The notes under the pieces were generated by a model that saw nothing but the letters and a program-made list of their open reading frames with translations, was not told where the DNA came from and did not search any database. The position numbers and the translations under genes were made by a program. 64,000 bases of DNA from Paraspadella gotoi (taxonomy: Eukaryota > Animalia > Chaetognatha), in assembly GCA_051294375.1 (NCBI GenBank), contig CM119267.1:25121783-25185782 (forward strand), given 5' to 3'. Numbering within the stretch: position 1 is the stretch's first letter; each line of letters starts with the position of its first letter. Positions 22,306-62,195 of the stretch are shown here, piece by piece.

Positions 22306-22541
22306 TTGCGATGGGTATGTTTTAAATCCTTATAATTTAAATAATATTTCTTTATTTTAATCATACATAATCAAAAATATATCACGATATATTTACTATG
22401 TATATTATATAGTACAAATGCGGTAAGATAATCAGAAAGTATGAAGCATAGTTAAACAAATTACATTAATATTTTACAAATGGTCAACTATAATATATTA
22501 TACACATTAGTATAATCACATATCTTACAAAAAGCATACAT

Positions 22542-23148
22542 TATGGCAACAGCCGGGTTGCCTGAGATGCCCTTTGGGATCGGTCACCCTAGGACGGTCT
22601 CCCTTTACAAACGCAGAGGGAAGTCGTTAGGACTGTGGATGGAATACAATGCCTGGGATGGTGTGTTCCCCTTCTGAGCCAATGGTATTGGCTGAATGAT
22701 CGTGGACGTGAGACTGTGTGAATATACCGCCACAGGATCCCCGGGTCAAGACATCACTCAGGTTCCTCAAGCCTGAGAGGTGTCTGACAAGACTTACCAT
22801 AGTGGGAGAAAGAGAGAGCGCGAGTTGTGGGGGCATAGGCGTTTGTCGTAGCGTACCCAAAGTCAGCAGGGTATAGGCATTTGTCGTAGCGTACCCTGCA
22901 TGTTCAATAGAAGGGCTCACCACCATTGGGATGGGGCATCACACTGTTGGCTTTGGAGGCTTCCGACCCTCAGTGACGCATCCAGTCACTGGCGCGGTTA
23001 CCCTAGGACGGTCTCGCTTTGCCAACGCAGAGGGAAGTCGTTAGGACTGTGGATGGAACACAACGCTTGGGATGGTGTGTTCCCCCTCTGAGCCAATGGT
23101 ATTGTCTAAATGATCGTGGACGTGAGACGATGTGAATATACCACCACA
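22542..23148 (-). mobile_element. Two-LTR TRIM/retrozyme-like non-autonomous element, family A
   Basis: Direct repeats at ~22923-23148 and 22542-22734 around a ~190 bp non-coding interior. Whole unit flanked by ACAT/ACAT (22538-22541, 23149-23152); minus-strand ends TGTGG...GCCATA. Confidence 0.85.
22946..23026 (-). ncRNA. Twister ribozyme, type P5 (family A, 5' LTR)
   Basis: Minus strand: GTTGGC-aaa-GCGA-GA-CCG-tcctaggg-TAA-CCGC-GCC-AGTGAC/GTCACT-GGG-TCGGAAGC-CTC-..-GCCAAC. Confidence 0.85.
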
Positions 23149-26100
23149 ACATAATAAATAAAAGCGGCGCAACACGTAGAAAGTGACGTTTCGGGTTTAA
23201 TTTAAATAAAGAGTTGGGGGGGGGGGTTAGACTGTCAGTGGAGTGGGTACCAATGCGTCAAAAACGCTCTGGTGCATTGCATGTATTCAGTAGGATTATC
23301 ACTCATTATATATAATTTTTTTATAAAAATTTTACTTTCGCCGACCTGGGTTTTGGCGTCTTTTTTTTTAATGGAGATTTTTGTTCAAATCTGACTACCA
23401 AACAATATAAACGCTCCTGAGAAAAGTCTGGTTAAAAATAGATGTAAAAACACTAGATTCTGATCCTGCTGCATCAGAAGGGCTAACATTTTTTTTCTTT
23501 TGTCAAATAACCATCATTTTGACATCAAACTATCAGATTCAAATTGACTGGTCCGCTAGGGAAAATATTTTTGACGCAATTTTTATATATGAAATAAAGG
23601 GATTTCTCAACTTCAATACAATGTAAACGCATTTAACATATGTTGTGATTTTACAATAAACTTCAAATTCAGGAATCCGATAGCCATATGTCTGAAGGGC
23701 TCTCAAAATTTTTCTTTACATTTTATTTAGTTATTTTAATATGATACGATTATGGTAAAGTGAATTAGTCCATTTTGGTGAAATTTTTATTTAAAGTAAA
23801 AGTAAAAGAGCTAACGATCGGAATTCTAAGAGTTTTTAACCGGGAGTCAGATTCAGGAAAAATCTTCTATGGATTTTCCAAAGATTTTGGTTAATATTTT
23901 CTATATTTATGATCAGATTTTTTTGAAACTTAACAATTGCAATATTGCCATCATTCTACATTGGCCGGTAAAAGAATATATTAAAAACAACCTCTGGCTT
24001 TTTTCGTCAGAGCTTAGTCCTAAATTAGTAATTACCCTAACCCTAAACCCTCTTAACCCTAACCTTAACCTTAAACCCCTCTTATCTCGGACGGCGAAAG
24101 GAAATTATGTCATTTTCTTTTTCTTTTAAAACTCCCGTTTTTATAGTTTGATTTTACTTATACAAGTAAAAATTTCTTATCCGTCTCTTTTACTTTTTCT
24201 CCTTCATCCTATTAAATTCCCCGCTCTCCGATTCCGTCAGCTTTCTTTTGTTCTTTTGAAATCATTGCGAGCCAATCCATTCAGGAGGGCCGAAAGCAAG
24301 AGGGTCGTCTCGCCCCTTTTCCCGTCATTTCAATGTCTCATCCACGTCGCTCGTTATACCTTTTTTTCCACGTCCATTCTAGCGCGCTCTCTCACTCTCG
24401 CACTCACCCACGCTAGACCCGGTGGGACTCTCTCCAGCGCGGCGCGCTCGTTCTAGGCTCCGCGGCACCAGGATTTATCTCCTTCGCCTCGCGGCGCCGT
24501 TGATTGCGATACAGGACATTCATTTTAACTATTTACGTCAATCTATCTTGGAAGAGAGAATCGGGTGTTAAATCGCTGTTTTTGGGATCAACGATTTTTG
24601 CCACTTCCTCCCAACTATCCTCTCTTGATTTTGTCACTTAAGGGATAAAAAGAATACATTCGAAATCATACGAACTGTACATTTACAGAGCTTCATTGCA
24701 GCTTCTAAATATAAATTATTAATCATGGACTTGGTGAAAATATAATTTTAAATATATAACTATAAGGTATTAACAAAACTGAGCTTTTAAAACTCGAGCG
24801 CCTCCCTAGAGACAACCTATCACCTTGGTCGTCACCCCTCGCAGCTATTCTAATAATTACTTTTCGGATCCTCAACGACTCGAAGGCGTCGGTCCTTGTT
24901 ATATTTTCTCTCGCACTTTAAAATATGATCTCCTCCCTTTTTTGAAAAAAAGATAATGGAAAACTCATCATCGCGTAACCATAGTTTACAACGCTTCGTT
25001 CCAAGCAACCGCCCCCTCCTTTTGAAGATCTTTGTTATTGCTACTCACGGTTGCCATTAGTTGGCAGGGTTTTCACCCGTCTGTTTTCCCGAGACCACGA
25101 GCCCGTGCGACTCTTGTTTATAGCCATCAAATCCGTTTCGCTCGCGGCTCTTGGCTTCGACTTCGCACGTCATTCACGTTTTCTCATCTCGCTTTTGAAT
25201 TTCTTCGTCTCCTTCTTAACCCACATAAGCTTATAAGAAAACTACGCAGATGCCGTGTTCTAAAATATACTATTAGAATGTTTTTTCCTTATATGTACAG
25301 TGTGTAAAGATTTTCTTAAAAACTTAAAATAAAAATTTACGAGATTAACTATTTTTACCAAATCATCTCGTCCATTATTGAACCAACTGCTTGCCAAGAA
25401 ACGCCCCGTATTGTCGTGAATAATGATTGACTGCGAATCAGCCGGACTCAATTCTCCCCTTTTCATCTACCCACCCCTTGACAGTTTACACGGGCTGAGC
25501 GTCATGGTTCAAGGGCGAACGCCGCCGACTTTTCTCTCCCTTTGCTCATTCACTTCTCATCTTACATCCTCTATAAATTTTCGATTCATCGACCTCGATA
25601 TTTACGTATCCCTTTTCCTCTTGAGACCCTGCTGAAGAGAAGGTTGCCAGAAAAGGTGAAATAGTTGTTATCTTGCTTACAGCGCCAGACAAAAGTTTTA
25701 ACTTATGAAGATACATGTTGTATTATATCTTTTAATGCATTGTATCTTGATATTTATGAGTAAGCAACAGTCACAACCATTCTCAAATCTGATCGAACGG
25801 GCCTGCAAATCTTCTCAGACCGCGAGAAAATTCCTTTCTCATGAAAATCATCTTTGTCCCAAGGGCCTCGTCGCCGTAAACCAATTTACATAATCATTAG
25901 CAAAATGGGGAAAGAGAGAGAAAAAGAAAAAGAGAGACTTTTCAGGTCATGAGTTAACGAAAATTCCACGCACCGGGTAACTCGTTTAAGGTTGCTTGAG
26001 AGAGCCTGAAACGAACCTAACTTTTTTCTAGAGGCGGGAAGAAAAGAAAATTGGGCGAACTCACTTCCCCATCGGTCAATTCGCGGCGCGAAAGGAAAAA

Positions 26101-29100: not shown

Positions 29101-30289
29101 TGGTAAGGGTGATACACTTGAAAATTAAAAACAATCTGATGAAATAAGTTTAACTTAAATTGAGGTTAACCGAAAACCTTCATAGTACATTCCATCGTCT
29201 TTATAAGTAATTAAACGTTAAAAACTATGTTGATTGTGGAAAAACGAGCGCCGATACGCTGACGCGCGAGATAACGAGAAAAATAAAAGAGAATGAGAGA
29301 GAAAAAGAAAGAAGATATGAATGGAAATAGGAGGAGAATAAAAAGAAGAATAAAGAAAATAATGAGAAAAGACGAAATAAAGGAAGGCACAAAAAATTGT
29401 CATCGTTAAATTTTATTATTTCTTCGCAAGAGAACCATAGACGGAAAAGGTAAAAAAAAAAAAAAAAAAGAGAGAGAGAGAAAATCGACAGGCTAAAATG
29501 GAAGATGGAAAATATAAGTAAAAAGGGGAACACGGATAACGAAACAAAATGTAGAGAGGGAGAAATAAAGAAAAAGAAAAAGGAGGAGAATTTGGGAAGG
29601 AAATTGGTGAGGTTGGACAAATCTTGGGTCAAATCTTGGGTCAAACTAGTCATCAATCCGAAAAGAAGTGAGATGAAGAAGAGCCCAGGCTTCACGAGGC
29701 CAGAAAGACAAAGAAAAAAGACATAAAAAGATAGAATGATGAAATAAATATGAAAGGAATATAATAAGCCATAACTGGATGACAATATTACTTCTTAATT
29801 GAATGAATGGTTAATTTTTATATTTGTCTTATCAGTTTATTCGTGATTAAAACGTTGTTAAATGTAAGTGTATTATAGCAATAACAGCGAGAATAAAAAA
29901 AAGAGAGAGAGAGAGAGAAAGATAGAGAGAGAGCGATATGTCTCGCCGTTAAATTAACGTCTCGGCAGTTGTCTCGCCTTGACTCGCGTCAAGCGGTAAT
30001 GAGGCGTGCAGTCCAGTGTCTTTGATTGCGAAAAATTAGTCGAGGGAATCAGAAAACGATACAAGGTCGAAAAAACGAAACGGAGGGGCGCTGAAAAAAA
30101 ATTGAGCTTAAAAATGGCGGCAGCAGGAAACGTTAACGTTAACTATATTTTCTGTTTTTATTTTCTTTTTTGTGCGTTTGTTTTCATATTTATTGTTTAC
30201 ATTGTAACTTTCACTTACTGTGAGTTTTAATTTGTTTTTCTGAAAAAAAAAATCGATCTCCAAATAGAAAAAATTATCGTGGCAAGGTA

Positions 30290-30982
30290 CAGAAGGCTTC
30301 ATATTATAAAATGAGGTACCCTTTTTTGTGACCAGAACATGTTCCGTGAAAACTATAAAATAGATTTTAATGAAATTTGGTATGAACGATCCCTATGTGA
30401 ATCCCTATGCGAATTTCAATATTTGACCCCTGAGCCGAGATATGGGGCCCGGGAGGGGTCACCCATAGGCCCCCCATAGGGGTAAAAAGTGTTCAAATTT
30501 TTTAAAAATTTTTTAAATTTTTTTTGTTTTAAACAGTGGCCCAAATGTTTACTCTTTCACAAAAACGTATTTATTTACCTTAAGTTTCAGCTTCATGAAC
30601 ATCAGCGGTTCATGTCAGATTTGGAATAATTCGGGAAAATAGAGAGAAAAACGATGAACCATGCATCTTCAAACACTAATTAATAAGAAAAAAATTCATT
30701 AATTTTAGTTTTAAAAATTTTTTTTATATGTTTAAGACATCGATAAACCTGATTCTACAAAAAATAACAAAATTTAGCCTTTTTTGGCCCCTTAGGGGTC
30801 CACCCCCAGGGCCCTGTATCTCTTGTCAGGGGTTGAATATTACAACTTGCCTTGATAGTTCCATTTATATCGTCATTAGAACTCTAAATGTAAAATTTCA
30901 TGAAATTCGATCTGGTAGTTTGCGGGGAACAGTTTCTGGTCACAAAAAAGGGGTACCTCATTTTATAATATGAAGCCTTCTG
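30290..30982. mobile_element. MITE (~700 bp) with long TIRs and TA flanks (Tc1/mariner-type)
   Basis: TIR CAGAAGGCTTCATATTATAAAATG(A/T)GGTACCC... at both ends, TA on each side; same family at 40459, 49225 and 51978. Confidence 0.88.
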
Positions 30983-33899
30983 TAATGATTCTTAAAATGG
31001 TTTTAGGTTCAACAATGCAAATCATTTTCATTCCCTAATCTATATATAATTCCAGATAACTTATAAGGCAACTAGTTGGCATGAACAAGATTCAACTTAA
31101 ATATCTTAGTAATTGCGTGTCGGTAAATAGAATAACCGTATAACCGCATAAGAAAAAAAACCAAACAAGAGAAAATGAATCGTCAATGTTAAAGAGACTA
31201 CACTTTGAATCTAGATAATTTATTTTCTTTATATGTATACATTAAAGCGTAATAAAAATTTCAATTTTAATTAAAATTCTAAAAGTGAGGAATAAACAAC
31301 ATTGTACTAATGCACATTAATATATATCAATAATATATCAATAATATACAGGGTTCGAACTTAAAACTTAACCCCCATAGGAAAAATTACTAATCTCCTC
31401 GATAATTTGTACTTAATGATATATCTGAAAAATTTAGTTTTAACAATTATTTCATGGGTCATTTTACTTCATGTTTAGCTCAGGTCAGGTACTCATTTAT
31501 AAAGTATACCTTCCATAGGACCCTTCCAAAGATGAGTAGACATTCTTGGTACCACTGTGTATTCAATAATGGCCCGAGATTGATGTAATTCCGGTTACAA
31601 GTACTGTTGAGTGTTACATTTAATTCGGCCCATACTGCATCCAAATGAATTTAGATACTGTATTACATGGGGCATAATGCCCTGAGGCCAAAATTCGGAG
31701 AAATTATATTAAAGGAAATCTTACTTTATACTAGTAACATAATATATTATGCCGTATAAATTACATAGATCGATGGTTAATAAGTCAGGGACCTAATCCC
31801 GGTAATTGTACGGTATTCCAAGTTACCGCAGCATACTGCAGCTTTAATTTTTTTTTAAGATATAAAATTTTAAAGTACAAAACTGATTGATATTGCTTGT
31901 TATACAATTTTGGCTTATGCTAGAAATTATATATATATTTTTTTTGAGAAATCAATAAACAGTACTTCTCAATACCACCATAAAGAAATCCACTAGGTTG
32001 ATCATTGTAACTTTTGCAGGAGTGCAAATATTTATATTAGTTGATTTTTAACTATTTGGGCGTGGAGCAAACATGACTCATGGTTTTCGGTTGCTTCCCA
32101 TACTAATGTTTTTTGACATAGCAAAACTAATACAATCCAAAGATAGAAAAATCCTTAACGATTCTTCTGCTATAAAAAATAAAACAATTTTGTAAAACAA
32201 TCTTGCGTGGGGGAGGATAAATAAGGGGGTAAGATTCAAGTCCGAACTCTGTATATTGATGCTGGGCGGAGTACAATATAATAAAAACAATACAGTACAA
32301 TACAATATAATATTTTCCCCGATCTAATACTTAAGGGAGTGGTCTTTTTATACAATTGAAACATTCTTTGAAATATTATACCACTTCATTGATAAGGACG
32401 CCAGGAACTCTGGGAGAGAATAAACAAGACTGTGAGAGATTCTTGATCGAAAGCTTGCAGGGACCTGCTATGTCATTATCTTGTAAGAGTGATGGAGGCC
32501 TTAAACCACCAAAGCCTGTCCAAAGTCAGTGGCAAGATAGCTTATGAATGGATAATTTTTATATTGATTGTATCAATTTCATTAAAAAATTGTGTATTAT
32601 AAATTTGGCAATTTAAGTTGTAGGCTATATTTATACATGGTACTAATCATATAAATGTTAAAATTTCAAAATAGTTTTTGTAAGATTTTATTACAGATTT
32701 GGATTCGTTATGAAAAGTTGATAAAAAAATCTTAAAAGCTTAAGGCCAGGGATCACTCAATCTAATATTGTAGAAATCTTAATTTACTGTATCTTAATCA
32801 TTTTCTCACATCTTGTAAGAGGTTTTCTATTAAAAAATAATCGAAAACTTTTAAAAATCTACCTAAAATATTAATAAAAATTTAAAAAAAATTTTTTCTT
32901 CGGTAAAACTAGATTTTCAAAAGAAAATATAATTTTTTTTAAATGTAAGCTAAATTTCTACAACCAAATTTTTAACTTAAAACTGATTCTTTACAGTAAG
33001 CTTCAATTTCTAACTTCTTATATTTAATTCTTCCTTTGGTACAAGTCCATACTTGGAGTTGTATCACTAATAAGTCTAAAACAACCTACTCTACACATTT
33101 TTCATATGGGTTTTTATGCTTTTATGGGTTTTATGAGTTAAAAAACTTATCGAATTTATTTCAATTTGACTTTTTACTTTATATAAATGTTAATATCATA
33201 AAATAGTTGCCCTATTTTCTAAGAAATCTCTGAAAAAAAAAACCAAATATGAATTTAAAAAATTAAAAAAAGTAAGCCATTTTTTTAAGACATCGGCGTT
33301 GAACAAACTCCATCATCACATCCCGTGCTTGTGTATGTTGTGGTGAATCTTGCAAAAGTAATGAGTACAGAATTTAACTTTCTTGACGAAGTGAAGTTAA
33401 AAACGAAGAGTTGCAGCTCAAACCACAGGACTTTACTTGAAGAAAAAATATCTTGGGCAAGAAAGGAAAGATGGGGGAGATTCTATGAGGCGCGTTTTTG
33501 GAAAAATGTTTTTCGTTTCAAAGATATTAAGGAATATATCCCAAAAATTGACTAAAATAATCAAATTTTCTATGAAGGAAGGCAAATTTTGAAAGTATCT
33601 TTTTCATAGAATTGGGAGTTCGTGACCTAAAAGTAATCATGCCAAAATTTCATGAGAAACCGCCTTACCGTTTGGGCTGCAACTCTTCAAATAGTTTCTT
33701 TTATTTTATATAGTACCAAAATCGAAAAAGCAGATAACGCCTTTGAAAAAATAGTAAAGTGAATACATTTTCGGAATCGTCAGGAGCTCTCCTTTCGAAA
33801 TCCGAGCTCGGTTTTAGCTAATATATATTTGAATTGAGTGATTCCGGACCTTAAGGATCGTCGCAATCCCATAAGAAAAAATCTGGATTGATGACAATT

Positions 33900-40224: not shown

Positions 40225-40458
40225 ACTCTTGCCGAGGAATTCAATCTGCCATCAAAAATAATAAAAGCCTACTTTGAAATTTTACGATCATACAAAAATA
40301 TATAAAAATATAGCCTACTGCGAAAAGGACCAAAAATTACTATTTTTTCCAAAAAATATTTACTGATAGTACGTTGTTCATTATTGACTTTTAGAATTTA
40401 CATACGTAACTTTCACTACGCTCTAATATACACCCATAATCATAATAGTTTCTATATA

Positions 40459-41191
40459 CAGAAGGCTTCATATTATAAAATGTGGTACCCCTTTTTTATG
40501 ACCAAAATCTGTTCCTACCAAACTACCTGATCGAATTTCATGAAATTTTACATTTAGAGTCTTAATGACGATATAAATGGAACTATCGAGGCGAATTTTA
40601 ATATTCAACCCCTGACAAGAGATACAGGGCCCTGGGGGTGGACCACTGGGGGGCCAAAAAAACTTCAAAATTGTTTTTTCATTTTTTGAAATTTTTTAGT
40701 GGCATCAGTTGCATTGATGTTTTAAACATATAAAAAAAAACATTTTAGAACTAAAATTGAAAAATTTTTAATAATTAAGCATAGTTTGAAGATGCATGGT
40801 TCATCATTTTACTTCCAATTTTCCTAAATTATTCCAAAACTGACTTGAACTGCTGATGTTCATGAAGCTGAAAATTAAGGTAAACTAATATTTCTGTGGT
40901 AATTAATATGTTTTTGTGAAAAAGTAAATGTCTATGCAACTTTTCAAAACAAAAATAATAAAAAAATTTTAAAAAATTTTTTGACCATTTATTGCCCCTA
41001 AGGGTGACCCCTCCAGGGCCCCATATCTCGGCTCAGGGGTCAAATATATTGAAATTCGCCTCGATAGTTCTATTTATATTCACATAGGGATCGTTCATAC
41101 TAAATTTCAATAAATTTGGTCCAGTAGCTTTCTCGGAACGTGTTCTGGTCACAAAAAAGGGGTACCACATTTTATAATATGAAGCCTTCTG
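40459..41191. mobile_element. MITE, same family as 30290-30982 (opposite orientation)
   Basis: Same TIRs and TA flanks. Confidence 0.88.
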
Positions 41192-41306
41192 TAATTCCTT
41201 TCCTCAGCTTCAGCTTCCATAACTTTCTTATTCACTGGACCCATTTTCTTCTCTCCCTGCTTCCATAGTCTGAAGTCCAGACTCCGACCAACTCAATCGA
41301 CCATCA

Positions 41307-44300
41307 TTAAGATCTTCGTTTCCCAATCAAAGTCCCTGCTAGTTTTGCTTCGATTCTGATCATCGTTCTCATTGTCTTTTCGATCTCCGCCAGCCTCTCG
41401 CCCAAAGACGAGGATCGCGCGGCGACGGCGCTCAGTTTCCGGCTCGACGCTGCCAGCGCCGGTGCGCATTTTATGGTGACGCCGCCGCAATCGGCCACCA
41501 GTCGGCGTTGGTCTCGTTGTAAGTCTTCGACGCGGAGGGAGAGGCGTAGCATTTTGTCGACGACGCGCGTCTTGCGCCTTTGAAGGCGAAGGGATTTCCT
41601 ACGGACCTCCTACGAGACAAGGAAGGTTAAGAGTTGAAGAAATATAGAAAAAGAGGATTTAAACAAAAGATCATCGATCGATCGATAGGCACCTAACCTC
41701 CAAATTCCTTCTGGCGCAAGCGGCATCACAGAGGCGGCCCGCCACGCGGCGTCGCGCCTCAGCGTCGCGTAGGTGACGCAAAACGAATGCGACGAGTTTA
41801 GGGAGAGCGAGAGGAGAATTGACGGGAAAGGGGTGAGAAGAAGGGGAGGAGGAGGAAGAGGAAGAAGAAGCAAAAAGGATGAGAGACGGAACTCGAGTCA
41901 TCGTTAAATTCCACGGGAGGTCATTGGCGTCGATGTCTAGACGACCTACGATCGTTGGGAAGGAAGTTAAGAGTTTAATTTGATAAATACCATGTAAAGT
42001 TATTAATTTAAACAAATTAACTAACGCACCCAATTTAAGGCGGTCAATCCCGACGAACAACTTCGCCATGTTCGAAACGTAGCGATTGAAAACGCGACAA
42101 AGTCCGCACGTGTTGGAGTAAAAAAGGAGCAGGAGTTGTTGTCCTGGGGCGGAAAGAATTCGGTGTAGACTGTCCGAGGTGATCTCGAGTAGGAATGCGT
42201 CCCCGTCACCAACGGGGCGTCGATCCGTTTCGTCTCGACGCCGCCATCGACGAAACGGTGCCGCTCGATTCTCCTCGGTGAGGTTCTTCACAAGCTCCGC
42301 CAAGTCTTTGGTCGCGGCGCCCTCGGCAAGGAGGTGAGGCGTTTCCTCGTCGCTGTCCAGAGCGGCGATGACGAAGCCGAAAGATGTGAAGCGACGTGAC
42401 GAATCCTCGGCGTCTTCGAACCTGGATGGACAATGAGAGGAAAATAGGAAAAAGACTTCTAAACCCCGGACGAACTAATTCATTAACAAACCTTTTGGCG
42501 AAGACTGGAAAGTCGTCGCGGACAACATAGGCAAACTCGACGCTGCGATTGAGCCGACAGGCGAGACCGGCGAAGCCCGGCACGGACAGTACTCCGTCCT
42601 CGACGACGTCGGCAGCGTTCTTGGTCAACGGGCGCCAACAGAGCGACGGGCGACCTCGGTAAAGTCGGCAGAAGCGGCGCCAGTCCGTCGCAGTCGGCGG
42701 AGGAGGCTCCTCCTCGTGATTAGAGACGCCGATCGAGCAAACGCGGGTAAGGTTTTTTGAAGAGGTTGTCGTGATTGTCGTTGATGTCTTGAAGCAGATC
42801 TCGGAATTGGTGAAGCGTTTCGTCAAAGAGGAGAAAGAATCTTTTTCTTCTTCGTCTTCGTCGTCGAGCTCGTCAGCGAATCGTTTGAGTTTATCACAGC
42901 AAAAGTGTTGAGCGCGAAATCGCGAGAGCGAAGATCGAAGGACGTGTTGGAACGCGTCATGGTAAGTATCGTCGCAGGCGCGAAACCACAGCGCCGTCTC
43001 GCGGAATGCCGCGTAGCTCGGGTTGTAGGCGTGAGGCGATTCCTGAAGAAAATAAATAGTTAAATGATAAAGAAACGTCTCGATAAAGGAACTCCGACAC
43101 CCGATCCACGACTCGCCCTTAAATCGGGTCCGATCATCACGAGGGTGAGATTGGCGTCTCGAGTTAAGAGAGGGTGCAACGCCGCGCCTTCTTTTGCCAC
43201 GAAGATGACCGTCGGCCGGGAGGCGTGGGTGCGGACGGTGACGATCAACGCGGCCGTAGTCGCCGGCGAGTGTGTCTTCGTTGAGTTAAAGGCTTCTTCG
43301 CCTTCTTCCATCAAAGAAAAAGTGAGCGTCTCGTTGGACGCGCGGTAGAATCTAAGGGATAACGCAGATATTTAGTTATTGTCATGAAGAAAGAAGTGTA
43401 ATGGATGGTTATTTAATATGATCTTAAATGAGATTGAATTTCTTAATCTTATTTACATATTGTAGTGTAACTTGAAATGATACATTTTCATTTTGGGTTT
43501 CAATTTTAGTTCTGTTTCTAGGTTTTTCAGTACTTAAATATAGTCTTTAGCAATATTGGTAATTAACAGTAATTATAGTAATGTTTTAATTGATTATTAT
43601 AATTTAGTATTTTATTACTTAGAGATTGACTTGCTCATATTTGGTTATCTCTTTATTTGTTCAGAAGTTTAATCATTATTCAGCTTTGGTTTTGGGAGTG
43701 GAGATCCTGATTATGATTATTATTAGTAAGAGAGTAAATAAATCGCCGGCCGAATTCTTTAAAAATTCTAATGCCCGCTAAGAAATATTTTGCTCCCTCT
43801 GTTCAAACGCCGGTCACAAAACGTTACCTTATTTGGAAGTATTTTTAGAATTGTTTACTTTACAATGTAAACCAAATTTTTCTCTCTCTCGCCGTATAAA
43901 AATGAATGCCACTTTGTACAATTAGCCAATTCGATTCCATTCGCTTTTCTGATTTCAATAAATCGATTCATTATGGCAACAGCCGGGTTGCCTGTGATGC
44001 CCATTGGGATGGGGCATCTCACTGTTGGCTTTGGGGGTTCCGACCCTCAGTGACGCCTCCAGTCACTGGCGCGGTTACCCTAGGACGGTCTCGCTTTGCC
44101 AACGCAGAGGGAAGTCGTTAGGACTGTGGATGGAACACTACGCCTGGGATGGTGTGTTCCCCCTCTGAGCCAATGGATTTGGCTGAAGGATGGTGGACGT
44201 GAGGCGGTGTGAATATACCGCCACATCATCTCATTTTGTTCGCATTTTTATCTCGACCACCTCCACTTTAGAGTCCATATCTCCTTATCAGAGCTCAATC

Positions 44301-47300: not shown

Positions 47301-50300
47301 TTTCAGTTAAAGTAAAAAACAGGAAAAAATTTATATAGTAACTTGATAAAATGTCTTTTTAAATATGAAAAATGATAAATACAAATAGGTTTTTAGCTTC
47401 CTATACACAGTCTGGACGTCTACCTTCTTGTCTGTGAAAAAAAAAATCGTTATTTTTCATTATCTTCAACTGCAAACAAAAAGCTTGACACACTGCTTGT
47501 TTATCATAATAAAATTTTAAAAAATTACATAGCTGGCAACATATTTGACAAAACAAGACATTGTGTTAAATTTTATTGATAATTTTTGTCTAAATATAAT
47601 TCTATTATTTATTATCCATTTTAATTAAGAAAAAAAATTTCGCGGAATAGCCCATTGAAAAGGGTTCATTGACTGACTTAATGATCCAATTTTTTAGGTT
47701 TCTTTACTGCCCCCATTTCACAAGACATAAAAGGTCATGATTATCGTGTCAGTATATCCAGATTATCTGTTCGATTTCTGCAACCTGCATTCAAAATTTT
47801 ATTTTTTCTCTTTTTAAATGTATTAAATAAAAAAAAATATTTGAGAGAACGATCGGCGTGGAGGATGCCATTTGTAAGCCTTAGTTACCCCACTTCCCGA
47901 TGGAATTTTTAAACGAGGTTTTTTTTTCATCTATTCGAGACATAATACTAACTATTGGTACTATTAATTTTATATTGGTTACATAATATTTTGGGTAATC
48001 AGAGAAACGTTTAGCGTTTATTTAAGGAGGAATCTACTTATCCTTCCTGCTTCTCAATCACCTGACGTAATCGAGATCAAGGTCCAATTCTCTGGCCAAA
48101 GAAGGCGAGGCCACCACGAAGAAGCGAAGGGAAAGAGGGTGACGGGAGGTGGCGAAGTGGGTGGAGGCAGAGTGGAAGGTGGCGAAGGTGGAGAGAAGGG
48201 ATCGAGGGTTGGGTGGAGGAAAAGGCATCGACGAGGGATCTGCGGGACACAAAGGGCGAGCCCGTTGATTTAAGAGTTTTGAAGTAAATAAGAAACGAAC
48301 CGAGCGCCATCACCTGGTGAATAAGGAAAAGTACCCGCGTCGGAGACGTCAAAATGACCGAGGACTACGGTGTCGAAGGAGGCGCGCGCGTCCTCCAACG
48401 CCTCCGACGAGTCGAGGCGAGAAAAGGGATGCACCACTCGTTCTACGAACGCTAAATATCTTTAAAGTGACAAAAAAAGGGGGAAAATTGTATTTTCTTA
48501 CTTTTCAGAAAATTGGCAATCGGCAAATCTAACCCAGAAGCGGATCGCGGTCCGTCGTACAGTAACCCTCGATGTTCTGCCCCCAGGCGTCGTGAATATG
48601 CGTAAAAAGCGGGGAAGGCGACGAGGCCGGTGGCGCGCCGGTGACAGGACGAATTCCGCGCCCGACAATTGACGGCGGCGAAACGAAGGACGCCGGGAGC
48701 GCGGCGCCGCGCGGACGAAGATGCGGCGCGGATGAATCCGGCGCGAGATTCCAACGAATCCGCGTCCCACGAAGCGTAATACATTACCAAGACAACGTCG
48801 TAGCGAGAAACGAGAGTCTGCAAGGAATGGAGGGGAGGAAAGGGAAAAGAGGAGGGAGGGCCTTTTTATAAGGTAACAAATATAGTTTTTTTTTTTCAAA
48901 AAACTACTTCTTAATGAAACAATCAACTAAATGCCAACTAATTGCACTATGGGCATATTTTTTCCGAGAAAAAACCTCATTTCGAAGACTGTGGAGGGGG
49001 GAGATAAGTTGAGGAAGGGTGAGGAGAAAAGGAGAGAAAAACTCATATCCCTCAAATTTTAACCTTTCTTTTTTCATTTTCATAATTTATAGTAGTTAAC
49101 TGTTAAATGTTTATTATCACTTTTAGTTTAAAGAATTTATCTTTGTTGTTCATTGAATAATGTATTGTTTCTAATATTTCTTTGTCTGTCTCTCTCTCTC
49201 TCTAGCTCTCCCTTTCACCATTTACAGAAGGCTTCATATTATAAAATGTGGTACCCCTTTTTTTGTGGCCAGAACACGTTCCGAGAAAACTACTGAATAG
49301 AATTTAATGAAATTTTGCATGCGGAGTACCAGTAGTGATACAAATGGAACTATCAAGACAATTTTTTACATTACACCCCTAAGCTGAGATAAGGGGCCCT
49401 GAGGGCAAAAAATGGGCAAAAATTGTTTTCAAATTTTTTTATTATTTTTGTTTTGAACTGTTGCACAGACGTTTACTCTTCCACAAAAACGTATTTATTA
49501 CCTCAAAAATATTCATTTACCTTAATTTTTAGCTTCATGAACATCAGCAGTTAAAGTCAGATTTGGAATAATTTTGGAAAATTGGAAGTAAAACGATGAA
49601 CCATGCATCTTCAACCATGCTTAATTATTGCAAATTTATCAATTTTAATTCTAAAATATTTTTTTGTTATGTTTAAAATGTCAATGCACCAGATGCTACT
49701 AAAAAAATTTGAAAAATAAAAAAAAAATTGTAGCATTTTTTGGCCCCCCAGGGGTCCACCCCCAGGGCCCTGTATCTCTTGTCAGGGGTTGAATATTAAA
49801 ATTCGCCCCGATAGTTCCATTTATATAGTCATTAGCATTCTCAATGTAAAATTTCATTAAATTTGATTGGGTAGTTTGGTGGGAACAGATTCTGGTCACA
49901 AAAAAAGGGTACCACATTTTATAATATGAAGCCTTCTGTAATTTCTTTTTCACAATCTAACTCAATCTGTCCTCAACTGAACCTGTCCTCACATCTGACC
50001 ACTATTCTTTTCTAATCTCTGTGTTGGAAACTTTGCTCTCTCTCTCTCTTCTTCTTTAGCACAAAATAATTTCACAAATTCACAAAAAAAATGTTAACGC
50101 TGATGAAGGCTTGTACGTAAGCCGAAACATGTACGTTCTGATATTAATAAAGTCGTTGTAGAAAACATTAAAACGTCTCCCAATAATTTTTTTTTAATAA
50201 AAACGCAGAGAGAAAGAAGCCAAATCGTTTTCGGACGAATCAGCAGCGGCAGCAGCAGAGGCAGCCAGAAAAAAAAAGACAGCAAAAGACAGCAGCAGAA

Positions 50301-51673: not shown

Positions 51674-51977
51674 CGATAGCCAAGGAGACGGCGAAGATGG
51701 AAAAACTAGACATCCTTTCGTTTCCGTCTACCGGAGACTAACATAACTGTATAGAATATATATATTTATCGATGTGAATTTAGCAATAATATGAGCAAAC
51801 AAATTTCAATTAGAAAAAATAAGGCATTGTAGTGAAACGATAATCATTCGCACGAAAACGACGCTCTAAATCGTGTTAAATGAAAAGATAATGATTCAGA
51901 TCTAAAATATTGCAAATCAATATTATTAACCAATTTCTCGATTTTGTTACCTTGAATGGCATATATACATATGTATC

Positions 51978-52450
51978 TTTTTTGTGACCAGAATCTGTTC
52001 TCACCAAACTACCCGATCAAATTCAATGAAATTTTACATTAAGAGTGCTAATGACTATATAAATGGAACTATCGAGGCGAATTTTGATATTCAACCCCTG
52101 ACAAGAGATACAAGGCCCTGGGGGTGGACCCCTGGGGGGCCAAAAAATGCTGAAAATTTTTTTTTTTTTTTTTGAAATTTTTTAGTAGCATCAGGTGCAT
52201 TGACGTTTTAAACATAAGAAAAAAACATTTTAAAACTAAAATTGATAAATTTACAATAATTAAGCATGGTTGAAGATGCATGGTTTATCGTTTTACTTCC
52301 AATTTTCCCAAATTATTCCAAATCTGATTTAACTGCTGATGTTCATGAAGCTAAAAATTAAGGTAAATGAATATTTTTGAGGTAATAAATACGTTTTTGT
52401 GGAAAAGTAAACGTCTGTGCAACTGTTCAAAACAAAAATAATAAAAAATT
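51978..52450. mobile_element. Truncated copy of the same MITE
   Basis: Near-identical to the reverse complement of ~49435-49905; both termini missing. Confidence 0.8.
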
Positions 52451-52598
52451 TCAGCAAACGATACATAAATATGGCAAATCAATATCATATCAAAATACCA
52501 CGATCAGTAGACACATTTTTTTCCGCAACAAATGGTGATAGAAACTTCGGAACTTATGGATTTAATTGAACGTAAAACTCCGATGTAGATGTAAATTA

Positions 52599-54409: not shown

Positions 54410-55290
54410 GTTTGGGTGTTTACAGTACATTCATGGATTGTAGCAAGGGTTTTGACAAAGTGAATCATTATGGTCTTTTTACTAAGCTTATAGATAGTGG
54501 AGTGCCATTATGTTTCTTAAAAATCTTAGTATACTGGTATAGTATATGTAAATAGTATATATATAGTATATATAGTAAATGTAGATGGAAAAGTACCATA
54601 AGTGATTCTTTTGTAGCGTCTTCTGGCGTTCGCCAAGGAGGAGTCCTCAGTCCATACTTATGGGCAGTATATGTCAACGATTTAATTTTGGAACTAAAAA
54701 AATCCGGTTATGGTTGTTACATAGGACATATTTTTGTAGCATGCATATTTTATGCAGACGATATAACACTACTTTCACCAACGATAAGAGGTATGCAAGT
54801 CTTAATTGACATTTGTGCAAAATATGCAAAGGATATTTGTTTTACATTTAGTTTCAAAAAAACGAAAGTCATGTATTTTGGGAAGTGGCAAACGACAATT
54901 TCAAATGATATACTTTTTCTTGATGGTAACTGTATCGATCTAGTTGATAAATGGAAATATCTAGGGTTCAACCTTAGTAGTGAAAGAGACAGCTTGTTTG
55001 AGCCAATCAAAGAATTGGTATCTTTTTTTAGATCAAGTAACTGTTTGATAAATGCCTTGTTAAAGCCTTTAGAGGAATTATTGATGAAATTGTATTATAC
55101 TAACTGTGTTCTGGTTCTCCTTTAAGGTTGTGAAGTAAAAAAATTTTCTGTACGTAATATGAACAGACTTAATGTAGCTGTAAATGATGGTGTCGAAAGA
55201 TTTTTGGATATAATCAATGGAAAAGTGTGAGGAACTTAGGAGTATGTTTGGATACCACGACCTATCTACAATTTTTAATAATCGTAAGAA
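54410..55290 (+). pseudogene. Non-LTR retrotransposon (LINE) reverse transcriptase fragment, 5'-truncated and decayed
   Basis: FMDCSKGFDKVNH...SGVRQGGVLSPYL...YADDITLL...WKYLG motifs, with stops and frameshifts. Confidence 0.88.
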
Positions 55291-56340: not shown

Positions 56341-59300
56341 TTAGTTATGATGACTCAAAAATGATATTCCCGATGTGTCGGAAGGAGTCCGTCGATAACG
56401 GGTTGCCTCTGACGACGTTCCCTCAGAAATCTTAGGCTGCTGCGGCGGTGGCTGCAGCTGTTGTTGAAGCTGCTGCAACTGGGGTGGAGGCTGTTGGCTA
56501 TGAACGGAAGCGGTTGGACTCTCCGTGATACCGACGCCGTGAAGAAACAGAGGAGAACCGAAGTCGTAGACGCCCTAACGAGAAAAGGCAGAAAAATGAA
56601 GAGCAAAAATCTTTAAAGTATAGTGATCTCGCCAGACGTTACTTTCAAAAAAAATTAAGAAAAAAATCTATAAAAAAAACCCCGAATGATTGATGCGATA
56701 ACGAGTTATTGATGTAATAATAATTGATTGATGTAATAATAATTGATTGATGTAATAATAATTGATTGATGTAATAGTAATTGATTATTGAGGTGATTAT
56801 AACCAATTATTAATATGATGATAACCAAAAGATTGATGTGATGATACCCAAATATTGATGCGATGATAACCCAATATTGATACGATGATAACCAAATGAT
56901 GGATGATTGGATGCGATGATAGTCATTCATTGACTCGATTAATCATTTATCCTAAAACAAATAAATGTGTATGAGAGAAAGAAAAAGAAAGGGAGAAAAA
57001 AAAAGAAAAAAAAAAGAAAGAAAAAGAGAGAGAAAGAGAAAATGAAAGAGAGAAAAAAAAAAGAGAGAGAGAGAAGAAAAAAAGCTAGACAGCCGCTGGA
57101 TAGTCGCTGCAGAGCTTAACTCATTTTTAGATGAATTGGAAACAGCAGCGATGGAAAAAAAGAGAGCGACATATAATGGAAAAGAGAGAGAGTAACATAT
57201 GTATAAAAGAGAGAGCTGAACAGATGCTGGACAACCGCTGCAGAGATGAACTCATTTATATAAAAATTGTTTTGTAAATAAAACATAAATGAGTGGAGGA
57301 GTATGAAACATAACAATTTAAAAGACCTTAATGATGAGAAACCATATCTAAATTTTCAGCTTCCTATGGTTACACACTTGATCTATTTTCTTAAACCAGT
57401 CTGGCGAGATAAAAAGACAAAGAGACAAAGAGAGACCAAAAAGAGATGCAGAGAATGAGAGACAGAGACAGGCAGAAAGCAAAAATTTTGCTTAAAAAAT
57501 AATTCCACATTTTTTATAATAGAGATTTCCATTCGAATCTGATTACTATGAAAACGGGGAGACATGTGTGATGCCCGAGGTGTGAAGCATCACCCGACAG
57601 CTGGCGCTCAGAGCTTTGGACCTGCAGTGACCACCCCATGTCACTGGTGTGTTTATGCCGACACCATCACACTAACTAGCATTACCATGAGGGGATTGAA
57701 CCCGGAACTCACGGTTGGTGAACAAGTATTTAGCGGTCCAAGCCAATGGGACGAGCTGATTTTCACCAAGCTATACGGGAGGCGAATTTAGGATTCGCCA
57801 CACTACCCACTTTACGCAATTGAGGGAAATTCTGGTAGAAAACAGTTGTAAAAATGCACGATTCTTATAGCGTTGCATCTCAAGAGCTCGACAATTTTTT
57901 TTTATGGCATTTGATAAAGAATTTACTATCAACCAAGCTCAGAGAAATGACCTCATCTCCGGTAAATTTCAATTTTTTAACATTACAAACACGATTTCGG
58001 TATGTTAGGGTTATTAATTAAACTTATATTAATTAGCCTTATATCTCAATTCCTTTATAAGTCACTTTTCAGTCGGTTTGTCGGTCGATCCTTATATCTG
58101 TCCGTCGGTCTGTCCCACTTATATTAAAAATGATCATAACTTGCATATAGTTAGTTGTTAATTTGTCAAGACAGGAAAAAAAAATCAAATCTAAGGGACA
58201 GCTAGCGCCGCCCTCAAGAAATCCAAAAACTATAAAGAATAAAAAAACAAAATTCCGATGCAGTGCGTGTCACAAATACACGGGCGAAGAAAGTTATTTT
58301 AGTCATGTCACGTCATGTCATGTCAAGTAATCAGTCACTGAGGCGCAACACATTTGAATTACCGTTCTCGTTTCTTTTTTTTATTTCATGATGTTTTTGG
58401 TGACAAACGATCAGGTTTAAATGAAGTGGTCCAGTTTTCTTCGCTAATTTTTTATTTAAAGAAAATTAAAAGAAAGGTTGAGAGAAAAAACTGATTTTTC
58501 CGAATATCTTTTGAAGAAACAAAGATAAAAAGATGGCAATAGTACCAAAATAAAGCCATAATCATAGGGCACATACAAGATACAAATTTACAATCATTTT
58601 TCCTAAAACCTCCCTACAGGAGGAGTGCCAAACTAATTTTTTTCGAAATAAGAGAGAAAAAAGAAAGACACAGAGAAGAAAATTAATGAAAAGAGGAAAG
58701 AAAATCGGAAAACAATCAAATTTTTTGTGGTTTAAACCAACTTTATCGGCTCCGGTGAACGAGAGACGAAACTAAACCCAAAACTTTCCCATAAAAAATT
58801 CAACTTTTGATTTAAAAATATTTTGATTCGCACTTTTCTTTTAATGAGGCCTTTCACCTTTGCCACCGACTCTTCAAAAACCTTTTAAATTCACCTTTTG
58901 ATTGAGAAAGTCTTCAAAGTAAGGCATGTCTTGCTCAGGAATGAACGGACGCATTTCCACCAACATGTACTTTCGTTCGGGCCCAAATAGGTCACAAACT
59001 AAAGAGGAGAGATGAAAAAATAAAAGAGGGCGACGATGATTCTAATTCGCTGCAACTCACCCTTCTGGCAAAAGCTGACAAAGTCTGCCGTTTCGTGCCA
59101 CTGGGTGAGCAGCGAGGCGAAGCGGTTGAGCTCCTCATTGGAGAGTTTGAGGTGGAGACGTTTGGTGAAGTCCTCGATGAGCTCTCGACTCTCCACCGTC
59201 GAACTCATGTCGCTCTCCGAACGCTCCAGCAACACGACGCCGCTCTGCATCGAGGAGCGGGCGGGGACGCCGGAGGAAGAGGACCACGTGCTGGAGCGAA

Positions 59301-62195
59301 GAAGTGGATGAAGGAAGGATTAGAAAAGTAAACAGTCATTGAATGTCCATATTCCTCGCTAGTCACCTGTGAATGTCGGCAGAGGAAGAGAAGGAGGGGT
59401 GATAGCGGATACGACCGCCGCCGTTGGACACGCTCGCGCCGACGCCGACGACGCTTCCGCTGCGTGACGGGAAGGCGGAAGAGACGCTGACTCCGGCGCC
59501 GTCGCGGATCTGTCGGTCGAAGAATTGCATCGTGGCTTCGGTGTAGACGAGTTGGAAAGACTGAGACACCAAAGAGCAAATCTCCTCCGCGGATGACTTG
59601 CCAGTGACCTAAAAAAAAAGAAAGAAAGAAATAAGTAAAGAAAATAAAGAAATGAGTAAAGAAAAGAAAGAAAAAGACCTGCAACACAACGAGATCGCAA
59701 GATTGCTCGGCATCCTTTGACTTCGCCGACATCGTCGTCGTCTTACTGTCTCCGCCGTCGCCGAAACCGGCGCTGACCTTCATGGCCAAGTAATGCGCGG
59801 CGTCGTCATTGACGTAAGAGACGGCGCCGATTTCGTGCGTCGGCAGGCGGACGATGAGATCCTCGTTGACGTCGTGGCGCGACAATTTGACGTCATAGGC
59901 GCCGATAGAGAGAATGGCGGCGAAATCGTCGTCGCCAGAGTTGGGGCGGGGCAGAATCCCTCGCCGTCGCCCGTCGTCGATACAGCGCAGGAGTTCGGTT
60001 CGGTTATTCGCGTCGAGGGAGGAAAGGACGCTTGGGACGATTCCCAAGAAACGAACCTTGAAAAGGCGAGAAAAGCGAAGAAGGTGGAGAGGAAAATAAC
60101 AAGTTTGAGCAAACAATGTCGGATCTGCCCACGATCATTATCGCTAATTAATTAATTAAATAATTAATTATTTAATTAGATGTTTGTTTTTATGTCTTTT
60201 CGTCACTAACCACGACAAAACCAAAGACGACGATGAGAATAATGCCAATAACGATTGACTTTATTTATTGAATGATTATTTAATTATTGATTAATTAATT
60301 GACTAATTGATTAATTAACTGATTAATTATTTAATTAATTAATACATCTTGCATTTACATTTAAAAAGAAAAAGAAGCATATGTGGTGAATCTTAAATTC
60401 GCCTCCCGTATAGCTTGGTGAAACTCAGCTCGTCCCATTAGCTTGGACAGTTAAGTACTCGTTCACCAACCATGAGTTCCGGGTTCAATCCCCTCACGGT
60501 CACGCTGGTTAAAGTGTGATGGTGTCGGAATAAACACGCCAGTGACATGGGGTAGTCACTGTAGGTCCAAAGCCCTGAGCGCCAGCTGTCGGGAGATGCC
60601 TCATACCCCAGGCATCACACATGTCCCTCCATTGCCATACATAATCAATTAGTGAAACAGGTTTTTTGTTTTTTTCCATTTTAACTCATTTACACACAGA
60701 CGATTCCATCAAAACTTGATTTCCAGCTTAATCACACACTTTCCTACCCACATACAAAATTTAAAGTCAATCGCCCCATATACTCATCAGTAATTGGCGT
60801 TCAAAGCTAAGGGGGAACGGACAGATGGACGGACGGACATGGTTTTTTTTTTTGCAAAATTTATCATAATTCGATGTTCTGACATGATCTAAGTGTCATA
60901 CCGACAAGCTTTTGGGGTGGGACCGACAAAGTGAATTATAGAGCCGACATCTGCTGTAAGCAGATCTGGCTAAAAATGTGAGAAAATATATAAAAAGAAA
61001 GCGTTTAAAACTGAGATCTCGAGATTACTTTGTGGTGGTATATTCACACCACCTCACGTCCACGATCGTTCAGCCAATACCAGCCAATACCAGAATAAAA
61101 TCGCATATATATATATTAAAAAACCCACCCAAAAAAACCCAAAAGAACCAGCTAAAAAAAAACAAAAAAAAAACAACTAAAAAGTTTGTTTTTTTATTAA
61201 CTCAAATATTGTATCCGAACATCAAAATTTATTTTTATCTCAAAAGACAATTTAGTTCGGCAAAAACATGTACTTCAATTTTTAATGTATTAGTAATTTA
61301 TATAAATGTTTATGATGCATATTTATATAAAATTATTTTGAGTATTTAATTACTATTTTCTAATAAGATTAAGTTTATACACTTTTTTCATAACAGGTTT
61401 TATTCAGAAAATATAATATTTATATTTATTACATTTCTGTTTACCATAAAAAATATTAATTAATTAATACTATTATTAAATATTATCAGTATATTTTTAT
61501 CAGTAATCACTTAAAAAGTATAAATATTTTAAATTTGTATATTAAAAAGTATTAATATGACTGTCTGCTATATATAATTTAAAAAAAAACCAAAAAAACC
61601 AAATAAAACCCCAAAAAACCCCCAAAAAACCAAAAAACCCCCCCAAAAAAAACCAGTGGGCTGGGTTTTTTTTATAAAACCAGGCTATTGACAACCCAGG
61701 CCAATACCATTGGCTCAGAGGGGGAACACACCATCCCAGGCGTAGTGTTCCATCCACAGTCCTAACGATTTCCCTCTGCGTTGGCAAAGCGAGACCGTCC
61801 TAGGGTAACCGCGCCAGTGACTGGATGCGTCACTGAGGGTCGGAAGCCCCCAAAGCTAACAGTGAGATGCCTCATCCCAATGGGCATCACAGGCAACCCA
61901 GCTGTTGCCATAACTTCATCATTTCGTGGCCAGTTTCTTCAAAAAAACATCTCAAACTCACCGCCAACTCGACGTGTGATTCGACGAGTATCTCAGGCGG
62001 CACCACGTAGTCGGGCGGCGTCGTCGGATGCGTCTTCAATGGGCGGCGTTCGAGTTCGACAAGGCCGGGCGACGCCGAGGGCGCTGAAAGAGCGGGAGGG
62101 GACGCGATCGGCGCGCTTCCGGTCTGACGCTTGTCTTTCGTGGCGATGATTCGTAAATAATCGATGGGATTTGATTTCCCTTTGCGCTCGTCCAT
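56341..62195 (-). CDS. CCM2: Cerebral cavernous malformations 2 protein (malcavernin)-like, multi-exon
   Basis: ERRPLKT...DYVVPPEILVESHVE|VRFLG; PTB domain (IVRLPTHEIGAVSYVNDD...SQSFQLVYTEATMQFFDR); harmonin-homology domain (KLSNEELNRFASLL...LFGPERKYMLVEMRPFIPEQD). Last exon 56341-56575 is in phase. Confidence 0.88.
56705..56935. repeat. AT-rich short tandem repeats (TTGATGTAATAATAATTGA; GATGATAACCCAATATT)
   Basis: Visible ~20-bp periodic units. Confidence 0.7.
57547..57802 (-). mobile_element. Solo LTR, family B, in a CCM2 intron
   Basis: Reverse-complement homologue of 60382-60639; flanks TTAC/CTAC (3 of 4 match). Confidence 0.82.
57600..57680 (-). ncRNA. Twister ribozyme, type P5 (family B), GCC>ACC variant
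   Basis: Minus strand: GCTAG-tta-GTGT-GA-TGG-tgtcggca-TAA-ACAC-ACC-AGTGAC/GTCACT-CAGG-TCCAAAGC-TCTG-..CCAGC. Confidence 0.75.
60382..60639 (+). mobile_element. Solo LTR, family B, in a CCM2 intron
   Basis: TGTGG...GCCATA, CATA/CATA TSD; tRNA-like segment with TAGCTTGG and GGTTCAATCCC; twister follows. Confidence 0.88.
60504..60586 (+). ncRNA. Twister ribozyme, type P5 (family B), apparently intact
   Basis: GCTGG-ttaaa-GTGT-GA-TGG-tgtcggaa-TAA-ACAC-GCC-AGTGAC/GTCACT-TAGG-TCCAAAGC-CCTG-..CCAGC; predicted cleavage at T60531/A60532. Confidence 0.88.
60700..60977 (-). mobile_element. Helentron/DINE-1-like (HINE) fragment
   Basis: GGACGGACGGAC microsatellite and terminal hairpin AGCC-GA..ATCTGCT/AGCAGAT..GGCT next to an A-run; similar ends at ~37520-37610 and ~39290-39365. 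Confidence 0.45.
61081..61699. mobile_element. Non-autonomous hAT-like DNA element inserted in the LTR
   Basis: 8-bp duplication GCCAATAC on both sides; AAAAACCC-rich subterminal tracts; right end ...TTGACAACCCAG; left TIR appears deleted. Confidence 0.55.
61780..61860 (+). ncRNA. Twister ribozyme, type P5 (family A), apparently intact
   Basis: GTTGGC-aaa-GCGA-GA-CCG-tcctaggg-TAA-CCGC-GCC-AGTGAC/GTCACT-GGG-TCGGAAGC-CCC-..GCTAAC; predicted cleavage at T61806/A61807. Confidence 0.86.

Follow-up and report, generated by a model that had tools for sequence, protein, structure and literature searches.

What kind of element is the 607-nt sequence at positions 22542-23148 of a 64,000-nt stretch of the Paraspadella gotoi genome (the window, by which we mean the whole stretch analysed), and how might it multiply? 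A sequence-only reading had proposed an animal counterpart of the plant LTR retrozymes, combining a tRNA-type promoter with a twister ribozyme. We describe the layout of the element, the fold in its LTRs and its transcription and priming signals, and weigh the ways in which it could be copied.

Layout of the element and its lone LTRs

The element copy lies on the minus strand, reads TG...TA and consists of two LTRs around a non-coding interior of 188 nt (22735-22922, minus strand); its longest ATG-initiated open reading frame has 99 aa. The direct repeats start 414 nt apart and align over 154 nt with 92% identity. A copy of ACAT stands on either side (22538-22541 and 23149-23152), and comparison of the flanks fixes the length of the target-site duplication (TSD) at 4 bp, as against 3, 5 or 6. 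Repeats with this spacing, TG...TA ends, the ACAT duplication and a non-coding interior of ~190 nt had all been described in the sequence-only reading, and all are borne out. In size (<1 kb), in its two LTRs and in its short non-coding interior, the element has the build of a TRIM.

Both LTRs are damaged, as seen by alignment to the lone LTRs B and C described below. The 5' LTR (22923-23148, minus strand; A5') retains 226 of ~255 nt, without the last 29 nt that are present in B and C. The 3' LTR (22542-22734, minus strand; A3') is reduced to 193 nt by a 62-nt deletion at 22580/22581, and its catalytic A is changed to G at 22585. The loss of P3 and P4 noted previously in the 3' LTR is confirmed, but it is larger than described: further sequence is removed with them, besides the change of the catalytic base. 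From this deletion and this substitution, the ribozyme of the 3' LTR is predicted to be dead. The element copy is broken at both ends and is itself unable to release a unit RNA. The two LTRs differ at 13 of the 154 aligned sites, and the copy is therefore old or recombinant.

Other identities were considered and rejected. Read on the plus strand, the element has no primer site after the LTR and no ribozyme; a MITE would have long inverted ends, which are absent; and the split repeats of a DIRS or Ngaro element are only apparent, being produced by two deletions private to this copy. Inside the interior lie a hairpin (22750-22784) and a duplication with 38-nt spacing (22831-22896) that contains a stem-loop, the number of stem-loops differing among other members; the hairpin and the duplicated stem-loop are possible packaging signals.

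When the element was compared with the window by BLAST, the repeat was found without the interior at two further places, and these lone LTRs set the full LTR length at ~255 nt. Lone LTR B (43972-44225, minus strand; 254 nt) has the TSD ATGA and lacks one PK1 base, and lone LTR C (61031-61912, plus strand) has the TSD ACTT and an intact twister core but is split by an insertion. This insertion is AT-rich, measures ~620 nt (about 61083-61699) and is flanked by a ~10-nt duplication. Two more lone LTRs belong to a sister family, whose ends are as in the first family and whose depth in run X3 (see below) is similarly high; neither its interior nor its primer site occurs among the contigs listed. 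Lone LTR E (60382-60639, plus strand; 258 nt, TSD CATA) has a clear box B, and its P2, PK2 and P4 are written in different letters but paired. Lone LTR F (57547-57802, minus strand) has a PK1 mismatch.

The previous statement that single copies have their own 4-bp TSDs holds for B, C and E and loses its exactness at F, where three of the four bases agree. Variable TSD lengths or A-tails had been named as marks of an ordinary SINE; we find a perfect 4-bp TSD at four of the five insertions in the window, no A-tail at any of them, and neither of the SINE hallmarks (an A-rich or simple-repeat tail, a TSD of variable length) in the element.

Among the intronic lone LTRs, both sense copies (B and F) have a lesion in PK1 and both antisense copies (C and E) are intact, a weak pattern at n=4. 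The host gene of B is one that we take to be thioredoxin-like; Pfam gave nothing for it. Lone LTR F lies in an intron of a CCM2-like gene with a putative last exon: an exon in the window matches human malcavernin (CCM2; E 8e-18), and SET and RCC1 domains were also found. Such genes mark the host of the element as an animal. The window further contains a MITE-like repeat family of ~740 nt with long inverted ends and TGTGG motifs in the arms (30288-30993, 40457-41194, 49222-49947 and 51977-52451).

The twister fold of the LTR

The minus strand at 22946-23026, within the 5' LTR, matches a type-P5 twister fold, with the core at 22955-23017 and the P5 arms outside it. Our descriptor demands the type-P5 order of parts, taken from the consensus shown on phage hits, and accepts any paired pseudoknot. 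It matches the window three times (A5', C and E), against one match in 500 shuffled windows. In all three copies the catalytic A and G are in place, the cut site reads U-A-A and both pseudoknots pair. In the 5' LTR the predicted cut falls on the U-A bond between 23000 and 22999; the flaws of this copy are those of the first family, a C-A mismatch in P2, another in P4 and a P1 of 2 bp. The type-P5 twister previously described as intact in the 5' LTR is upheld in its fold and core, whereas the LTR that carries it is truncated.

A search with Rfam, which had been suggested as a check, turned out otherwise. No copy reaches the gathering score anywhere in the window, and at E<=10 no twister is reported on the element copy; the best results are partial twister-P1 matches below threshold at C (E=0.36) and E (E=0.11), in which P3, P4 and the loop are aligned. 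The PK2 letters are CGG/CCG in the first family and CCA/UGG in the second, as opposed to CCC/GGG in the Rfam model, and these variant letters explain the low score. Relative to the type-P5 twister (RF02684, clan CL00120), the order of the core is the same: P2, G-A, PK2 strand, P1, U-A-A, P2, G-C, P3, P4 and the loop with A-A-G-C. The differences lie in the PK2 letters, in P1, where 8 self-complementary nt replace the 8-bp hairpin of the model, and in the gathering score, unreached by all copies.

Across five aligned copies, 92% of cells are paired, compared with 30-44% when the partners are slid. In five of the 22 pairs, two of them in PK2, the families differ in both partners; as the five sequences form two related groups, this covariation is effectively one comparison, not five, and the count of double changes is matched or exceeded in 68 of 500 shuffles, which counts against it. 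The two diverged families retain the catalytic bases, with PK2, P2, P1 and P4 re-paired in different letters. The stability of the twister region is unremarkable (z -0.05 to -1.46). Folded as a circle, the 414-nt unit of the damaged element copy is 63% paired, with z -0.7 against shuffles; in this it is unlike the highly self-paired circles of plant retrozymes, a difference mildly against a retrozyme, though taken from a damaged copy. A scan for a hammerhead core inside the element gave no match.

In a screen of natural twisters, flaws in P1, P2 and P4 were tolerated and changes of the pseudoknots or catalytic bases were not, and ~94% of the candidates assayed were active (PMC11662667). Judged by these tolerance rules, A5', C and E should cut. 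Little or no activity is expected of B, which lacks a base of PK1, of F, in which PK1 is mismatched, and of A3', with its deletion and altered catalytic A; the core is broken in these three of the six LTR copies in the window. The family variants listed from the sequencing runs sit in the P3 loop, outside the core.

P1 is stunted to 8 nt (23001-23008, minus strand), which are fully self-complementary: alone they form a 2-bp hairpin, and two copies can form a duplex. In both families P1 and its loop make up 8 self-complementary nt with different letters, the form of the second family being that of F; the base at which E deviates reads as in F in 97% of the depth. Calculated energies are -11.0 and -9.5 kcal/mol for the duplexes, versus +2.7 and +2.9 kcal/mol for the 2-bp hairpins. 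Such a duplex between copies parallels the hammerheads that act as dimers (PMC6765202, PMC7229834). P1 is reported to be dispensable, so pairing between P1 copies may not be needed.

The same patterns were sought elsewhere. A variant-pseudoknot pattern hit 65 loci in viral contigs, none of which passed the pairing descriptor, and the canonical twister pattern hit 51, of which four passed; the Rfam scan covered 28 of these 51. The family pattern has no match in metagenome contigs. Two of the four loci that passed, the phage contigs L093 (129-228) and L109 (110-209), each contain two type-P1 twisters in direct tandem; being of type P1, they set no precedent for a short-P1 type-P5 twister.

Promoter-like motifs, primer site and abundance

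A putative box A-like motif begins at LTR nt 54 (23083-23095, minus strand), overlapping an inverted CCAAT, and a putative, degenerate box B-like motif follows 35 nt later at LTR nt 89 (23050-23060, minus strand). In the first family box A contains TRGCY, while YGG and GGTTC are both absent; in the sister family a canonical GGTTC box B stands at the homologous place with 43-nt spacing. The Pol III A/B-box-like motifs of the sequence-only reading are degenerate in the first family, and it is in the sister family alone that they are clear. Box A is overlapped by CCAAT/ATTGG motifs. The transcribed strand has no run of four T in A, B, C or E, and ARAGORN found no tRNA in the window. Judging from these motifs, Pol III transcription of the element is likely.

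Directly next to the 5' LTR lies a primer-binding site of tRNA-Trp type (22897-22922, minus strand), newly recognised here by sequence likeness and absent from the first reading. It has two parts: a match to the CCA end (22913-22922) and, 10 nt beyond it, a stretch resembling the T-arm side (22897-22907). Nine of its first 10 bases match the tRNA-Trp site of Kojima Fig S2, a reference other than the host's own tRNA. The spacing of the two parts is unlike that of a real tRNA-Trp, so that an ungapped comparison with tRNA-Trp 3' ends gives only 9-11 matches in 31. A degenerate motif of this region, designed with tRNA-Trp in mind, occurs at no fewer than 121 metagenome loci; among the matches listed, 102 were assigned to tRNA-Trp, 17 had no call, one was undetermined and none was of another isotype. 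The motif has no match in viral contigs.

A weak candidate for a polypurine tract, with five purines, lies three bases before the 3' LTR (22735-22742, minus strand). A Trp primer and a 4-bp TSD mark the CsRn1 lineage of Gypsy elements (PMC3630058, PMC3587641), and by analogy a Gypsy of this lineage is the likely helper. No Gypsy helper element was seen in the 64-kb window. A reverse transcriptase fragment (Pfam RVT_1) is present at 54556-55125.

The locus was compared with Logan contigs of four public sequencing runs (X1, X3, X5 and X7), in which summed contig depth is not a copy number. In X1 the depth is ~1.5 million over the twister, 0.25-0.52 million over bins of the interior (22741-22864) and 67 on the right flank, a pattern repeated in X3, X5 and X7. 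These depths point to thousands of copies, interior included. The left flank of the element copy has no cover in any of the four runs, a hole that proves nothing. Contigs linking the LTR end of the element copy to its flank are present in runs of three studies. X7 is labelled RNA by guess only: it covers non-coding flank and its ratio of LTR to flank depth is that of the DNA runs, so it was not used for expression. A further run, X10, yields a single contig, on the flank of lone LTR E.

The contigs also tell of other members. In X1, X3 and X5, a contig of 316-338 nt joins the interior to an LTR that retains the 62 nt deleted here, and in X1 a contig runs from a complete LTR end into the primer site, only a few bases on. 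With both intact junctions represented, each on its own contig and none spanning the whole element, intact members very likely exist; pieced together, their unit would very likely measure ~430 nt (255 + ~173).

Known relatives, proposed life cycle and its rivals

By its layout the element is a Helenus-like TRIM. Helenus TRIMs (TRIMp3) are non-coding animal elements with tRNA-like boxes and 4-bp TSDs (Kojima 2024, PMC10886601), whose own transcription by Pol III is likewise putative. The likeness extends to the size below 1 kb, two LTRs with box-like motifs, a primer site, solo LTRs and a putative Gypsy helper. The element differs in its TG...TA ends, in its degenerate box B and in what follows it: most Helenus LTRs listed end soon after box B with a T-run, while here ~155 nt including the twister come after it. 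Its nearest entries are Helenus-2_SyJa and Helenus-2_SyUm (Synergus), both with tRNA-Trp and a long LTR segment after box B. By eye, the LTRs of these two entries (Helenus-2_SyJa-LTR and Helenus-2_SyUm-LTR) contain a type III hammerhead with complementary loops after box B and lack a four-T run. The available text of the Helenus paper mentions no ribozyme outside its references (PMC10886601), and the available part of its supplement, where line breaks may hide matches, has no loop motif readable as a twister in an LTR context.

Plant LTR retrozymes (Cervera et al. 2016, PMC4918200) resemble the element in being non-coding, with a ribozyme in each LTR, a 4-bp TSD, a primer site, solo LTRs, a putative Gypsy helper and a unit RNA without terminal redundancy. 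They have type III hammerheads, a tRNA-Met primer and RNAs of 600-1000 nt with experimentally shown circles (PMC4918200), whereas the animal element has a twister, a tRNA-Trp site, a unit of ~430 nt, tRNA-like boxes and a predicted circle. It falls outside the retrozymes if a type III hammerhead is the criterion, though by analogy its predicted mode of action is that of the plant LTR retrozymes. The Perere-3 twister variants of Schistosoma (Liu et al. 2021, PMC8501958) likewise belong to an animal retrotransposon, have a weak P1 and are active in vitro; Perere-3 differs as an autonomous non-LTR element with one type-P1 ribozyme at its 5' end and with neither LTR nor circle. Animal non-LTR retrozymes (Cervera and de la Pena 2020, PMC7229834) are also small and ribozyme-cut, some only as dimers, and form circles with RtcB in vitro, but they have type I hammerheads and tandem arrays without LTR, primer site or 4-bp TSD.

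In the parts available to us, the works that discuss twisters place them only in non-LTR elements or viroid-like RNAs (PMC8501958, PMC5680766, PMC9695139 and three preprints). Our literature search, with Repbase, Dfam, Roth et al. 2014, preprint supplements and most subscription journals outside its scope, found no twister within an LTR element. A review of 2020 hints at unpublished insect elements that carry type III hammerheads (PMC7761336), and ribozyme-bearing animal LTR elements may already be known outside the literature covered. Since animal TRIMs with a tRNA-type promoter and 4-bp TSDs are already published as Helenus (PMC10886601), the novelty lies in the twister and not in a Pol III TRIM; of the animal retrozyme counterpart first proposed, the LTR element and the twister fold stand.

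On balance, and with modest confidence, we read the locus as a damaged member of an abundant non-coding LTR retroelement family with an LTR twister behind a tRNA-like, likely Pol III promoter; transcripts of intact copies would be cut once per LTR. Transcription would run from the 5' LTR through the 3' LTR, and the twister would cut at the same bond in each to give a piece of ~430 nt. The fold is present in the 5' LTR and the lone LTRs and destroyed in A3'; in the contigs, 3' LTRs retain the deleted stretch. The 5'-OH and cyclic-phosphate ends would be joined by a host ligase into a circle. A tRNA-Trp would prime reverse transcription by the Gypsy helper, copying round the circle would rebuild both LTRs, and a Gypsy integrase would insert the product. 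Once both LTRs have been cut at the same position, the ends of the piece share no redundancy that strand transfer could use, so a circle is needed; this argument, like the circles themselves, is established for plant retrozymes (PMC4918200).

The main rival to copying from a circle is a twister that only forms the 3' end: active, it would replace the terminator, and transcripts escaping the 5' cut would keep ~100 nt of redundancy and retrotranspose as linear RNA. We hold this to be rather unlikely. A, B, C and E have no four-T run, versus a T-run after box B in 19 of 19 wasp Helenus LTRs (by eye, supplement part 8), and a 2-bp P1 together with two C-A mismatches could slow the first cut; yet a four-T run is also missing from at least three bivalve Helenus LTRs (supplement part 7) into which a ribozyme would not fit, so that the contrast is not absolute, and with an identical ribozyme in both LTRs efficient cutting would destroy the linear template. 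Less probable again is an inactive or incidental twister, carried along by an ordinary Helenus-type TRIM. Sub-threshold Rfam scores and a broken core in three of six LTR copies speak for this reading; against it stand the catalytic bases kept and the helices re-paired between two diverged families, the activity of ~94% of natural twister candidates (PMC11662667) and, weakly at n=4, the restriction of PK1 lesions to sense intronic copies.

The two remaining readings concern the source of the transcript and the unity of the locus. Transcription by Pol II, from the CCAAT of the LTR or by read-through from a host gene, would leave the tRNA-like boxes as remnants, the twister freeing the unit RNA and the later steps proceeding through a circle as above. 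It would agree with a box B without GGTTC at a distance of no more than 35 nt from box A, with the overlapping CCAAT/ATTGG motifs and with the promoter activity of a plant retrozyme LTR on a reporter (PMC9695139), but the canonical, homologously placed box B of the sister family at 43 nt and the absence of T-runs, as needed for a Pol III template, make it very unlikely. Hardly credible, finally, is a SINE-like monomer of 255 nt nested by chance in a second one. The repeats are indeed 8% divergent, with a separate deletion in each, but TSDs are fixed at 4 bp, the ends read TG...TA, A-tails are absent, a primer site directly follows the LTR end, and in other copies a high-depth interior is joined to the LTR.

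Building on the circular intermediate that we prefer, a bolder scheme can be put forward, tentatively and with real doubt. It posits an animal LTR retrozyme lineage of two or more families and thousands of copies, with a Pol III-driven twister gated by the P1 duplex of two LTRs: a two-LTR precursor would be cut efficiently, and a circle with one copy, left with its 2-bp P1, would be spared re-opening. Under this scheme, and with the hammerhead seen by eye in two wasp Helenus LTRs, tRNA-Trp TRIMs would have taken up two ribozyme classes, and retrozymes would have arisen more than once.

Reviews and a 2026 preprint, in the parts available, divide retrozymes into two forms, those of plants (LTR elements, type III hammerheads) and those of animals (non-LTR elements, type I hammerheads). 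An abundant LTR element of an animal that carries a twister cuts across this division and adds a second transposon role to the twister class, about whose roles little is known. Whether an LTR element can be copied from a circle without terminal redundancy could be tested within a single genome that holds copies in great number, and the PK1 lesions of sense intronic copies beside intact antisense ones offer a possible genome-wide test of activity in vivo. Because pseudoknot variants explain the Rfam miss, such elements may hide in other genomes.
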